The notes below the pieces were generated by a model. That model searched no databases. It saw only the letters and a list, made by a program, of their open reading frames with translations, and was not told where the DNA came from. DNA of 64,000 nucleotides from positions 1-64,000 of the IMG/VR virus record IMGVR_UViG_3300045957_000047. The stretch is one strand, 5' to 3'. Shown piece after piece: positions 3,197 to 10,728 of this stretch. Every line of letters begins with the position of its first letter. Position 1 is the first letter of the stretch. The position numbers and the translations under genes are program-made. Source of the stretch: a virus.

Positions 3197-3212
3197 AGCA
3201 CAGGGACGTGCT
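3197..3212 (+). promoter_or_regulatory. CsrA/RsmA-like ANGGA hairpin
   Basis: AGCAC-AGGGAC-GTGCT just upstream of the RBS of the 3228 gene. Confidence 0.5.
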
Positions 3213-6298: not shown

Positions 6299-6859
6299 AT
6301 GAACTACAAACTCAAAAAAGACTTGCTCCTGTGCCGCCTGGCTTGGCCCACTACCCCAGAAAGAAGGTCTCAAGCGCTTGAACACCGGCGTGTAATGACC
6401 CAGGCTAGGCGGAAGGTGTTGGCCTATGCACCCATAGAGTTCCACAGCACCGGGCTTCAACTGATGTCACGCGGCTGTCTGGACGATCTCAAGAGGGAGA
6501 TCATGCGGGTGCTCACTCAGGTCCACTACGAGCAGATGCCCCTACTCAGCGCCTTCCCTGCCCCGTCACAACAGGGGTCTGACGCACTCTACCGTCTGAC
6601 AATCAACCGGGAGCTGGCGTTGATCTCGGAAGACTTCGTGGAGATCCAGGAACGCATACGTCAGGCAGGTACCCCGTGTGCCAGAGCCTTTGACAACCCT
6701 CAGAAGCGTATCGAGCAGGTCGCTGGGATCGCAACCTTACCGATGATGCCCAAAGCCCGTCAGTTCTGTGAGCAGATCGCTAAGCTTACCGACGCACAAA
6801 AACAACACCGCCTGGCTGGCAAGCTCAGCCTTTTTATTCAACAAGAGATGACATTGTAA
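6299..6859 (+). CDS. Hypothetical protein
   Basis: ORF; ATG 6299 avoids overlap with the upstream gene and promoter. Confidence 0.75.
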   Translation: MNYKLKKDLLLCRLAWPTTPERRSQALEHRRVMTQARRKVLAYAPIEFHSTGLQLMSRGCLDDLKREIMRVLTQVHYEQMPLLSAFPAPSQQGSDALYRLTINRELALISEDFVEIQERIRQAGTPCARAFDNPQKRIEQVAGIATLPMMPKARQFCEQIAKLTDAQKQHRLAGKLSLFIQQEMTL

Positions 6860-7146
6860 TGACGACTATTCTGGATCTACGGATCACGACTTATCTGCTT
6901 TCAGGGCCTAAGACTTTGCAAGACCTGTATGAAAAATTCATGGACTCACACAGCGTGACAGTGCGCTCTCGGGTATGCCGACTGTCCGACATGGGGTACC
7001 TGATAAAAGAGTCAAAGAAAAGAAAATCCGGAGAAGTCGGACGGATGCCGACGGTTGTAAAAATAACGACTTTTGGCCGTCAGGCTGCTAAAGAAGAGCT
7101 GAAGTCTCTTGAAAGCCTCAAGAAAAAAGAGGAGGTCAAAAAATGA
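6859..7146 (+). CDS. Winged helix-turn-helix DNA-binding protein (PadR/MarR-like)
   Basis: Pattern LLSGPKTLQDL...VRSRVCRLSDMGYL...GRMPTVVKITTFGR. Confidence 0.75.
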   Translation: MTTILDLRITTYLLSGPKTLQDLYEKFMDSHSVTVRSRVCRLSDMGYLIKESKKRKSGEVGRMPTVVKITTFGRQAAKEELKSLESLKKKEEVKK

Positions 7147-7609: not shown

Positions 7610-7987
7610 ATGAGAATAATCAACATCAACCCCTGTGAGTTTAGGTATCTCGTGCAGAACGCTCGCAGAGGTGAAGGTGTCGAATGGACCGGTCAGCGAG
7701 GCAGTCGCCACCACTTTAAAGTCTACAAACGGTTCACACTTAACACCCCACGCCCCTACTTTTTCGGCGTGTTCATTGAGGCATCACTGCAAGAGTATGC
7801 CAAGACAGCAATCCTGCACAGCGCTATTCCTGACAGCAACGGTGTAGTCTTGTACGACTCTGGCCGTCAGACCTGGACGGATGCGGTGGGTGAATACTCA
7901 CTGCAGGCACTGGTTCACGCTCACTCGGAACTGTTCCGGTTTGACTGTGAGTATGTTAACGAGATGATCCACGGAGAGCTGGCGTGA
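7610..7987 (+). CDS. Hypothetical protein
   Basis: 125-aa ORF with GGAG RBS. Confidence 0.75.
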   Translation: MRIININPCEFRYLVQNARRGEGVEWTGQRGSRHHFKVYKRFTLNTPRPYFFGVFIEASLQEYAKTAILHSAIPDSNGVVLYDSGRQTWTDAVGEYSLQALVHAHSELFRFDCEYVNEMIHGELA

Positions 7988-8676
7988 ACACAGCAGATAA
8001 CTTAAACAAACTGGCTGACTTTATAGAAAAGAACGTCAGTCAAAAGCAGTTGGACATGAGCTACTGCCGATTAGATGAGGAGGGGAACAGGGTTCATTTT
8101 ATAAGCCAAGATGACTGTGGGACATCTGGCTGTGCTTTGGGCTGGGCACCGTTCGTACTTGGTTTAGAGCCGGTTGATAGTGACTTCGTTGAGTCAGAAG
8201 AATGGTTTCAAGTCCCGGAGAGTCGTCGTTTTCTTATTTTTCACGTTTATGGCCGGAGGATATTCCCGGACCTCACGGATAGAGACTGGTACGAGGTTTT
8301 TCACGAAAGGCTCTCCTCAGACAAGGCTGAGGTAATCGCCAGACTTCGTGACATGGCAGAACGATTGAAAAGAAAACAATCAGCTGCAAAGATGCGGTGT
8401 TGGATACGCTTGATCGACAGTGCTGAGTGGACTATCTACGAAATAGGCGAAAGCCTCCCCGACATAAGCAGAGTCGCTCGATTGGTCGGGATCGAGTACA
8501 CCGATGGTAGTCGGGTATGGGAAGACTGTCCTCCCCCGGCAGAGTCAGGTCACTATGCATTCTTAAGAGACGACGGGGAGATGGTTGTCACCACGCTTGA
8601 CGGCTCAGAAACGCAAGACTTTGCTGAAGAGAACTGTTACCCGTACTGGTGTCGCCTGACACCTCCAAGAGAATAA
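7984..8676 (+). CDS. Hypothetical phage protein
   Basis: 230-aa ORF containing CGTSGCALGW. Confidence 0.8.
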   Translation: MNTADNLNKLADFIEKNVSQKQLDMSYCRLDEEGNRVHFISQDDCGTSGCALGWAPFVLGLEPVDSDFVESEEWFQVPESRRFLIFHVYGRRIFPDLTDRDWYEVFHERLSSDKAEVIARLRDMAERLKRKQSAAKMRCWIRLIDSAEWTIYEIGESLPDISRVARLVGIEYTDGSRVWEDCPPPAESGHYAFLRDDGEMVVTTLDGSETQDFAEENCYPYWCRLTPPRE

Positions 8677-8678
8677 AC

Positions 8679-8927
8679 ATGAGAATAATCAACATCAACC
8701 CCTGTGAGTTTAGGTATCTCGTGCAGAACGCTCGCAGAAATGAGTTGTCGAGTCGAGCGATACGTGAGCGCGGTCTTTTCTTTTCAGGCTTTGACCTTCA
8801 GAACTATACAATAAGAGAATGGAGCTGCACCGCGTGTGGTGCCGAGCATGACAGAGATGTTAATGCAGCCAGGAACATTCTCGCGCTCGGGCATGAGCGT
8901 CTAGCGGTAGGAATCCCCCGGCTTTAG
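8679..8927 (+). pseudogene. tnpB: Chimeric ORF: duplicated phage N-terminus fused to a TnpB C-terminal remnant
   Basis: REWSCTACGAEHDRDVNAARNIL...GIPRL is the IS200/IS605 TnpB C-terminus. Confidence 0.8.
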
Positions 8928-9215: not shown

Positions 9216-9977
9216 GTGAAGGATTTATTTCAAAGGCACCCCATCCTGGCTCCTGTTGCGCTGTTCTCTGGTGCGTGTTGCTTGATCGTGAGTATGTACC
9301 AAGCAGGCCAGTTCCTGCACTCGTTAGGGAGTGTCTGGTCTCGCCCTTCGGTGATGTATCTGATGTCTTTTTGCTTGATAACGTCAGGTGTTGTTATCTC
9401 GATGATCCTAAACTCTGGACGTAAGCAAACCGTTTTTGTTTTTTGCTTCGCAGCGTTAGTGATACTGATGGTCGAGACGTTCTCAATAGGTACATCAGCA
9501 ACAGCTTTACGCGAGACTATTGCCCGTGTCGAGGAGAAACAAAAGTCTGAGTCGCCTGAGTATGTTATCAAGCGAAACCAGCTAATCAGAGCCGAGAATC
9601 GCATTCACACCGTACAGGCAGAGATTGACGCACTGCCTGCGAATTACCATGGGATGAGAGAAAGACGAGCACCTGAGATCGCTGAACTGGAGAAGAAAGT
9701 CGAAAAACTAAGCGATGAGTTAAAAGCGGTTGAAGGCTCAACAGTCGGCACAGCCATCAATGATCTTGAGGAAACAACAGGGATTCACGTGTTCTACTTA
9801 CTCATACTGGCTGCACTTGCACTGTCAGCTATACCGATGGTACTTACGCTGCTGTTGGGAAACCCAAACGGCGGATCGACCGCCAGTACGAAGTTCGGCG
9901 CAAAGACCGGTCCGAAGCCATCCGGTTCCCCCCAGGCACACGGCTCACCTACGCAGTTCTCCAAGCCCAAGGGCTGA
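9216..9977 (+). CDS. Multi-pass membrane protein with a coiled coil; possible -1 frameshift extension to 10054
   Basis: Three N-terminal hydrophobic helices, a coiled coil and a fourth TM; slippery G GGA AAC at 9857-9863. Confidence 0.85.
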   Translation: MKDLFQRHPILAPVALFSGACCLIVSMYQAGQFLHSLGSVWSRPSVMYLMSFCLITSGVVISMILNSGRKQTVFVFCFAALVILMVETFSIGTSATALRETIARVEEKQKSESPEYVIKRNQLIRAENRIHTVQAEIDALPANYHGMRERRAPEIAELEKKVEKLSDELKAVEGSTVGTAINDLEETTGIHVFYLLILAALALSAIPMVLTLLLGNPNGGSTASTKFGAKTGPKPSGSPQAHGSPTQFSKPKG

Positions 9978-10069
9978 ATAAGCGGGATGCGATGAAGTAC
10001 AGGGAGCGGATGCGAGCACAGGGATTGTGCGATGAGAAATATATAACCTATTGAAACGACGGTAGAAAA

Positions 10070-10294
10070 ATGAAAATAGATATAAAGAATATAACGTTAG
10101 AGCAAAAATACTGGCTAGCTGTAACCGGCTGGCTTGTCCTGGGCTGGATACTTACGAGTATGGAACACCCACCGCATCGGTGGGCTTTTATTGCTCTGAC
10201 CCTAGTGTTTTCAGGAGTGATTCTGATGGGGTTAGGCATTGTTAACTACTCGGAAGGGGTTTTTAGTCGCGACAAGAGACAACGAAAACAATGA
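10070..10294 (+). CDS. Small 2-TM membrane protein
   Basis: Two hydrophobic segments and a basic tail. Confidence 0.7.
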   Translation: MKIDIKNITLEQKYWLAVTGWLVLGWILTSMEHPPHRWAFIALTLVFSGVILMGLGIVNYSEGVFSRDKRQRKQ

Positions 10295-10728
10295 AAATAA
10301 TCAATAAATTGAAAAAACTATTCACAAAAAAGAAGAAGTTCCAGGTACAGGAACACTCGCAGCACTGGGTCATTGTCTTCACTAATCAAGATGAACTTGC
10401 GTACTACCTTCAAGGCATCCAGACACGCTTTAGACAGGGAGGTAAGTTGCTACTCAACGTTGCGACTAAACAAATCCGGATGAACTTATGGGACAGTGCC
10501 GATTATGTAGTCACACTGACGACTGAAAGCAGTAACAAGCGGTTCGAAGGGCATGAACTGACCGGCGTTGTCCTCAGATGTGCCGTCGGTCAAGAGTATT
10601 ACGGGCACCTGGCGAGCAAAGTAAGGGTACCGAGTGAACTCAGCTACAGTGAGTTTTGTCAGGTCGCATCAATCGGTCAACAGATGATCAACGGGTTGGA
10701 AATTAACATTGAGGAGAAGGAATTATGA
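10291..10728 (+). CDS. Hypothetical protein
   Basis: 145-aa ORF with ATGA overlaps at both ends. Confidence 0.75.
   Translation: MKIINKLKKLFTKKKKFQVQEHSQHWVIVFTNQDELAYYLQGIQTRFRQGGKLLLNVATKQIRMNLWDSADYVVTLTTESSNKRFEGHELTGVVLRCAVGQEYYGHLASKVRVPSELSYSEFCQVASIGQQMINGLEINIEEKEL

Follow-up and report, generated by a model that had tools for sequence, protein, structure and literature searches.

A candidate programmed -1 frameshift in the membrane-protein gene of a sediment virus and the frameshift cassette of its bacterial relatives

Described frameshift systems and the locus under study

To our knowledge, only a few gene classes of phages and bacteria are established users of programmed -1 frameshifting, such as those for the tail chaperones, certain capsid genes, dnaX and the transposases of insertion sequences (IS). 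The locus considered here lies outside these. It is the gene at 9216-9977 of virus record IMGVR_UViG_3300045957_000047, a complete record of 74,198 bp with direct terminal repeats that came from a sediment metagenome and whose first 64 kb were analysed as one stretch (hereafter the window). The gene encodes a protein of 253 amino acids (aa) with four transmembrane (TM) helices and a coiled-coil domain, and a preliminary description of the sequence had proposed that a -1 frameshift near its 3' end adds a helix-turn-helix (HTH)-type domain to this protein. For the family to which the gene belongs the proposal stands, in the form of an A_AAA_AAG cassette followed by a GntR-like extension; for the window itself it is unproven. 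It appears very probable that in this family a programmed -1 frameshift of the dnaX type gives the membrane protein a GntR-like winged-helix domain at its tail, and there is in our estimation an even chance that the window copy still frameshifts and gives rise to two isoforms, despite its loss of the canonical A_AAA_AAG.

In its most far-reaching form, to which we would assign a probability of roughly 0.45, the explanation is that a conserved family frameshift sets the ratio between a bare four-TM form and a winged-helix form of the protein, and that in the window the slip site has been re-invented about 20 codons upstream and the domain compacted into a 114-nt dual-coding overlap. In the explanation that we favour, the gene belongs to a hitherto undescribed family of inner-membrane proteins of phages and mobile elements that share a common plan, consisting of three N-terminal TM helices, a coiled coil of ~100 aa, a fourth TM helix (TM4) and a short, basic, disordered tail. 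Most ribosomes would terminate ~10 codons past the family slip site and yield the bare four-TM protein, and a minority would slip and yield a longer isoform in which a GntR-like winged-helix domain of ~60 aa is tethered to the membrane. In the window, the -1 slip would take place on G_GGA_AAC or on two heptamers that overlap it, helped by a hairpin 6 nt downstream, after which 63 codons would be read in the -1 frame, overlapping the 0-frame tail, to give isoforms of 253 and 279 aa. From the K/R-rich loop at residues 67-72 and the basic tails of the family we infer, by the positive-inside rule, a membrane topology in which the tail is cytoplasmic.

The likeness to the tau/gamma frameshift of E. 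coli dnaX is seen in the DNA of homologues. Three homologue loci (L002, L005 and L007) resemble dnaX in having a Shine-Dalgarno (SD)-like element 7-10 nt upstream of an A_AAA_AAG heptamer and a stem-loop 6-7 nt downstream of it, and a fourth (L006) shares the heptamer and the SD-like element (here 13 nt upstream) but is without the stem-loop. As in dnaX, there would be two products with a common N-terminal body. The two arrangements differ in that the shifted frame of dnaX ends almost at once, making the frameshift product the shorter one, whereas in the family the shift adds a domain and it is the 0 frame that stops early. The tail chaperone pair G/GT, known from lambda and most long-tailed phages, likewise depends on a -1 slip near the 3' end of a gene and yields a minor, C-terminally extended isoform in a fixed ratio; the window gene differs from it in specifying an early-region membrane protein situated by the replication genes, in lacking homology to that pair and in having an extension of DNA-binding type. 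The OrfA-OrfB fusions of IS3 and IS911 also join two modules, one of them HTH-bearing, in mobile DNA by means of A_AAA_AAG and flanking stimulators, but there the HTH lies upstream and a catalytic domain is added, whereas in the family an HTH-type domain is added to a membrane protein and no transposase is involved.

Two further systems are worth comparing with respect to the products. In alphavirus 6K/TF, a small viral membrane protein gains an alternative C-terminal tail by -1 frameshifting. That case differs from the present one in belonging to a eukaryotic RNA virus, in using a U-rich heptamer and in having a TF tail that is not DNA-binding. Insertion of an upstream TM segment is thought to stimulate the alphavirus slip, whereas TM4 of the window's protein would still be in the ribosome tunnel; membrane insertion of TM4 was rejected as a stimulator here because the helix is still in the exit tunnel at the moment of slippage. 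In the predicted long isoform, as in ToxR and CadC, a winged helix at the cytoplasmic face would be combined with TM segments and a periplasmic domain. This is a likeness of working only, unaccompanied by any relation in sequence: ToxR and CadC carry the DNA-binding domain at their N-terminus, within a single frame, and binding of DNA by the family is a prediction.

The membrane-protein family and its frameshift cassette

A HMMER search with the 253-aa protein against 1.84 billion representative sequences returned 53 homologues (53 clusters at 50% identity) that are 25-32% identical to the query and mostly 220-265 aa in length, every one of them a four-TM protein with a coiled coil. Those whose sources were looked up come mostly from metagenome assemblies; three also have NCBI records, and the contigs of several measure 40-83 kb. 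A profile made from all 53 homologues, from which the query had been excluded, aligns to residues 12-237 of the window's protein (profile positions 14-241 of 248, 194.5 bits), and this full-length match takes in the motifs FSxxTS, SPEY, P-x-x-[WY] and VS-x-x-G together with TM4. The family is not represented in Pfam, PHROGs or NCBIfam, weak NCBIfam matches to conjugal TraP (E 0.009-0.03) apart, and neither the membrane-protein family nor its frameshift is described in the literature library that was searched. The tails of the family members are short, disordered and rich in G, S, T, K and P, with a near-invariant KK in the context G-K-K-P/S and, usually, the ending L-[RK]-A-V-A. The KK lies within the last 30 residues in 47 of the 53 homologues, 38 of which terminate 8-12 residues later, and the residue that precedes it can in every case be encoded by a codon ending in A. 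The low-complexity 0-frame tail of the window's protein, which the preliminary description had treated as anomalous, is on this evidence the norm for the family, and the family profile runs on into it as far as residue 237.

Homologue DNA was available from six loci in gammaproteobacterial genomes: L002, which is the locus of homologue P0016 in a GTDB genome (a metagenome-assembled genome, or MAG, of the Granulosicoccaceae), and five further loci retrieved when the 85 genomes of the same order were searched with a profile. In L002, L005, L006 and L007 the codons GAA, GGA, GGA and GCA, respectively, are followed by AAA AAG, which places an in-phase A_AAA_AAG exactly on the KK motif and 31-37 nt upstream of the 0-frame stop. 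The -1 frame opens just 1-2 codons ahead of the heptamer in three of these four loci and continues for 76-125 codons past the 0-frame stop in all four. All four have an SD-like element (7-13 nt upstream), and the stem-loops of L002, L005 and L007, which L006 lacks, have folding energies of -15 to -21 kcal/mol. The stems of the three loci are unrelated in sequence, so that it is their position and not their sequence that is conserved. In L005 and L006 the -1 frame contains no ATG, GTG or TTG before codon 59, i.e., 32-33 codons into its conserved part, and independent initiation therefore cannot make the domain in these two loci.

The -1 peptides of L002, L005, L006 and L009 can be aligned with one another (alignment A4), and the extensions of L007 and L008 constitute a second, related-looking type. 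A profile built from A4 matches the N-terminal domains of regulators at E values of ~1e-5 to 1e-8 per genome, and Pfam classes these regulators as GntR (PF00392) plus FCD; the PF00392 model of Pfam does not by itself reach the family extensions. Weak matches of the A4 profile to the C-terminal domain of initiation factor 3 (E ~1e-3 to 1e-5; L020, L022 and others) were treated as spurious and excluded from the profiles. On the minus strand of L013, at 1486-2681, a family member of greater divergence (272 aa, hhalign probability 95.7%) is followed after 20 nt by a separate gene with its own ATG, encoding 117 aa that comprise a coiled coil and, at the end, the same winged-helix domain. Since the two are separate genes in L013, the pairing of membrane protein and winged helix is older than the frameshift arrangement. 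What we conclude for the family thus has its basis in four genomes of one bacterial order and in the protein-level signatures of the 53 clusters.

Two of the loci contain irregular copies. L009 (G452 contig 173) is a second family copy in the genome of L005, in which the body, a canonical tail reading GKKQSRRLHAV and the extension are spread over three frames; there is a TAG inside the profile match, and the copy is either disrupted or the product of an error in the MAG assembly. In L008 (1396-2399) the profile match ends at position 185, leaving neither TM4 nor KK, and an extension of the second type is still present in the -1 frame; this copy looks like a deletion variant. The neighbouring genes at the homologue loci gave no functional clue.

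Elsewhere relatives have proved hard to find. The virus itself is very far from known phages, the best identity of its DNA polymerase to that of any phage record being 26%. Searches with blastn and tblastn of 50,697 phage records with the locus, the 253-aa protein, the -1 peptide, P0005 and P0016 found no relatives, and a tblastn search of plasmids with P0003 and the -1 peptide gave a single row at chance level (E 0.4). No related locus was found in viral, metagenome or genome contigs by searches with the 253-aa protein, the DNA polymerase, P0005, P0011, P0026 or alignment A3. A word-indexed protein search returned only the 253-aa protein itself when that protein was the query, only P0034 and the window's own protein when the query was a profile of the family proteins (alignment A1), and nothing among longer proteins for the -1 peptide. 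A phylum-wide sample of 400 genomes contained no family members other than that in G001, and an Rfam scan found nothing relevant.

The slip-site candidate and the open frames of the window copy

The recorded gene call for the window copy is a protein of 169 aa beginning at M85, which omits the first three TM helices (residues 11-95). The GTG at 9216 is preceded by GAGGGGG, and because the family profile aligns from residue 12 onward we regard this GTG as the real start and the recorded call as too short. An AlphaFold model of the 253-aa protein, made with an alignment (predicted local distance difference test, pLDDT, 84.8), has three TM helices, a long helical domain and a fourth TM helix, with helices modelled at residues 11-37, 44-66, 73-112, 114-139, 145-171, 176-188 and 192-214; the tail, residues 215-253, is disordered. 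A fold search of the model found no match in the PDB, and in BFVD it found weak matches to uncharacterized phage proteins of 269-408 aa.

In open reading frame (ORF) phase, 9852-9875 reads CTG TTG GGA AAC CCA AAC GGC GGA, which contains the three overlapping heptamers listed in Table 1. These are the only in-phase X_XXY_YYZ heptamers of the stretch in which frames 0 and -1 are both open. The first of them begins at the last base of the codon for residue 214, with which the last predicted TM helix ends, and the placement of an in-phase G_GGA_AAC right after that helix, as first described, is borne out by the sequence, its phase and the AlphaFold model. The placement had also been offered as an argument for frameshifting, which does not hold, as it brings no known mechanistic advantage. 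The G+C-rich hairpin described downstream of the heptamer is likewise present at the distance given, the 6 nt of spacing matching the 6-7 nt between heptamer and stem-loop in L002, L005 and L007. It has a folding energy of -9.3 kcal/mol (z -2.1), which was equalled by 8 of 200 dinucleotide shuffles, and an equally stable fold in the 27 nt downstream is found at 1.0-1.5% of genic positions in this genome. Read on the minus strand (9869-9885), the same hairpin precedes TTTGGGTTTC and receives a terminator-like score, probably as a by-product, since all of the neighbouring genes are on the plus strand; the promoter and terminator scan found nothing apart from it.

Table 1. Positions in the window of the membrane-protein gene, its proposed frameshift elements and adjacent features
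Feature	Positions	Strand	Basis or remark
Membrane-protein gene, 0-frame product of 253 aa	9216..9977	+	ORF; GTG start; codons begin at positions divisible by 3
Three overlapping in-phase heptamers, G_GGA_AAC (9857-9863), A_AAC_CCA (9860) and C_CCA_AAC (9863)	9857..9869	+	Candidate -1 slip site
-1 frame extension, 63 codons and TGA 10052-10054	9863..10054	+	Translation; ends 15 nt before next gene
GC hairpin GGCGG-ATCGA-CCGCC	9870..9884	+	Candidate stimulator; 6 nt after first heptamer
ACC GGT CCG AAG CCA (T-G-P-K-P), aligned with family G-K-K-P/S	9906..9920	+	Alignment A1; K234 nearly invariant
0-frame stop TGA	9975..9977	+	Sequence
Small hairpin AGCACAGGGATTGTGC in 92-nt gap, inside proposed extension	10015..10030	+	-6.7 kcal/mol fold
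Next gene, 74-aa protein with two hydrophobic stretches	10070..10294	+	ORF

The -1 frame is open from 9770 and overlaps the 0-frame tail up to the end of the gene. Translation reproduced both the run of 63 open codons after the heptamer and the peptide that the preliminary description had quoted for it, and a slip on the heptamer would give 216 + 63 = 279 aa, so that the isoform lengths first proposed, 253 and 279 aa, are confirmed. In principle the -1 ORF could be a small gene that is initiated independently, as is the winged-helix gene of L013, where the partner domain is separate and has its own ATG. We consider this highly improbable for the window, as there is no ATG, GTG or TTG in the -1 frame from 9770 until an ATG at 9992, a start at which would leave 20 codons, and no SD-like element precedes any of the candidate non-canonical starts.

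It is also very unlikely, in our opinion, that the two frames are an artefact of assembly or sequencing, i.e., that a base is missing near 9857-9870 and that the real gene is one ORF fused to the 63-aa domain. The -1 peptide does look more like a folded protein than the 0-frame tail, and sequencing depth is modest (~11.5) in the one DNA run that contains the stretch; no RNA run containing it is listed. Against such an indel, there is no homopolymer of more than 3 nt at the site, the two-frame layout is the family norm in four independent genomes, and the family profile follows the 0-frame tail. Furthermore, 99% of the sampled 31-mers of 9216-10300 are present in Logan's independent contigs of the run, which is possibly the source sample; the one contig aligned to the stretch begins at 10018, downstream of the slip site. 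Transcriptional slippage was rejected as an alternative mechanism because no long homopolymer occurs at the site.

How often such a configuration arises by chance can be estimated from the genome itself. There are 80 in-phase heptamers in its 19,921 codons as compared to ~78 expected, runs of four homotriplets occur at the random rate, and a -1 frame that is open for at least 63 codons and runs beyond the stop is found at 1.7% of codon positions. When the joint rate of such a frame and such a hairpin is multiplied by 1/256 for the heptamer, a genome of this size would be expected to contain about 0.02-0.07 look-alikes. By itself, therefore, the window's signal is suggestive and lies within chance for a large scan, and had we to judge a frameshift in the window before any family context, the case would be weak and the frameshift improbable. 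It is the relatives that change this assessment: because they frameshift in the same gene tail, the prior for a frameshift in the window rises sharply.

The alternative that carries real weight is that the frameshift has been lost in this lineage and that only the 253-aa protein is made, the slip site having decayed and most of the extension having been deleted, with the heptamer, the hairpin and the open frame remaining as coincidence or relic. The segment 9978-10069 would then be ordinary intergenic DNA, possibly including a relic of the old extension. We take such a loss to be a serious possibility, somewhat short of an even chance, and a considerable body of observations counts in its favour and against a working frameshift in the window. 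None of the three canonical elements of a dnaX-type signal is present in canonical form. At the position of the family KK the window has CCG AAG, i.e., T_CCG_AAG, and A_AAA_AAG has been destroyed; the tail continues for 18 residues beyond T-G-P-K-P and is without the L-R-A-V end. The 30 nt that precede 9857 contain no SD-like element, defined as GGAG, GAGG or AGGA. The hairpin, of just 5 bp and with no pseudoknot partner seen, is weak next to the stem-loops of the homologue loci, and the 100 nt downstream of the heptamer are not unusually structured (z +1.4). Heptamers that are efficient in bacteria were taken to be those with AAG in the A site, as in A_AAA_AAG, G_GGA_AAG and C_CCA_AAG. The A-site codon of G_GGA_AAC is AAC, and it falls outside this class. 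According to PMC5009743, AAC-ending heptamers are far less prone to shift than AAG-ending ones in E. coli, and G_GGA_AAC itself serves the archaeal virus HCTV-1 as its g-t slip site. Members of the nearest subfamily (P0004, P0006 and P0022) lack the KK and end 10-14 residues after TM4, and since they too are without KK the whole branch may have lost the frameshift.

The reading frames and the family profile add to these objections. The +1 frame is likewise open (9730-9981), as might be expected because the stretch 9864-9974, in which all three forward frames are open, has 65% G+C, and the G+C richness would accordingly explain a part of the openness of the -1 frame. The -1 extension runs only 25 codons past the 0-frame stop as compared to the 76-125 codons of the homologues. 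Along the 0-frame tail the family profile gains 6 bits versus 2 bits for the trans-frame reading, and nothing of the 53-homologue profile aligns to the -1 frame of the window. As to conservation of the heptamer and the -1 frame among homologues, which the preliminary description had proposed as a check, a -1 extension recurs in four homologue loci, but the heptamer there is A_AAA_AAG and the window's peptide has no detectable similarity to theirs. The hairpin in the gap resembles recurrent intergenic hairpins of this genome, which fits weakly with loss. What loss requires, on the other hand, is that a chance configuration (~0.001 per gene) should have arisen in this gene's tail, the very place at which its family frameshifts.

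Codon statistics bear on the loss of the frameshift in both directions. When the 0-frame peptide was re-encoded by genome codon usage the -1 frame stayed open in 1.6% of trials, and when the actual codons were shuffled in order it stayed open in 43%, the latter in keeping with loss. T-ending codons are depleted in the 0-frame tail (4 of 37, as in 1.5% of windows across the genome), a rare condition that keeps the -1 frame open, and G+C at third codon positions reaches 73%, in the top 0.45% of such windows, a height otherwise unexplained if the frameshift is gone. In the -1 frame, synonymous codon choice is atypical (z -2.7 to -4.1) and CGG makes up 8 of the 12 Arg codons, both of which speak against the frame being translated and are what one would expect from reading a Gly-rich sequence off frame. 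Synonymous choice in the 0-frame tail is equally atypical (z -3.1 to -3.5) and thus unlike that of an ordinary singly coding region, which is a point against loss. The codon scores of frames 0 and -1 in the overlap are both near zero, and taken together with the atypical usage in both frames they are as compatible with dual coding as with drift or a foreign origin. Beyond the 0-frame stop, the remaining 25 codons resemble coding sequence when scored with an early-gene codon model.

The -1 peptide itself has no detectable similarity to the family extension, which must be counted among the points in favour of loss. Compared with Pfam up to E = 10 it gave only SLBB at 0.1, and it matched nothing in PHROGs, NCBIfam, PDB sequences, phages or longer proteins, nor a profile of the family extensions combined with GntR domains. 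Against both types of family extension and GntR domains the results were a BLASTP E value of 11, a HMMER score of -0.8 bits and a hhalign probability of 0.4%, and two position-specific scans against the family extension placed it at ranks 29 and 184. The preliminary description's identification of the extension as DNA-binding accordingly found no backing from profile searches, there being no match by HMMER, hhalign or libraries. A likeness to the family extension that can be picked out by eye (R-L-T-Y-A, as in L006, and the spacing G-L ... G-L) was set aside, as BLASTP, HMMER, hhalign and the position-specific scans did not support it. A single-sequence AlphaFold model of the 63-aa peptide is of intermediate confidence (pLDDT 70.3, predicted template modelling score 0.50). 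Its best VIA matches have Z 2.7-4.0, which is noise level by the tool's own calibration; they are mostly winged-helix chains and include the GntR-type entries 6z74, 3sxy, 3edp and 3ihu. Foldseek matches of the model occur only at E of at least 3, as loss would have it, whereas a winged-helix-like shape modelled with moderate confidence and without an alignment is somewhat awkward for loss. The extension is as long as a single winged-helix domain together with a basic linker of 7 aa, and we infer that the 63-aa peptide could be a divergent DNA-binding domain.

Neighbouring features and implications for the family

Several features in the vicinity of the gene deserve mention in their own right. 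Hairpins of the form AGCAC-ANGGAC-GTGCT recur between early genes of this virus, at 3197, 3810, 4049 and 21527. The first 10 nt of the hairpin at 10015-10030 are the same as 3197-3206 by BLAST, identity over so short a run being what chance would give; this hairpin may be a fifth, degenerate copy, situated 40 nt before the ATG of the next gene. Upstream of the membrane-protein gene, the 20 residues MRIININPCEFRYLVQNARR that start ORF 7610-7987 (7610-7669) recur in ORF 8649-8927 (8679-8738), which we read as a direct repeat flanking the gene at 7984-8676 and suggesting the scar of an insertion or rearrangement. To the eye, the tail of ORF 8649-8927 resembles the zinc-ribbon end of a TnpB-type protein. 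A 95-aa ORF at 6859-7146, 2 kb upstream of the membrane-protein gene, likewise has by eye the appearance of a small winged-helix protein; the profile of the family extension did not match it.

If the frameshift that we favour is real, it would represent a new use of recoding, one that decides whether a membrane protein bears a DNA-binding domain and by which a fixed fraction of a putative regulator would be kept at the membrane by the cell or the phage. The near-invariant KK some 10 residues from the C-terminus of these proteins would then be the footprint of an RNA signal and not of protein function, and the annotation of the family would need to be corrected, since gene callers give the short form only. 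The atypical copy in the window would, in that event, be a natural experiment on how such signals move or decay.

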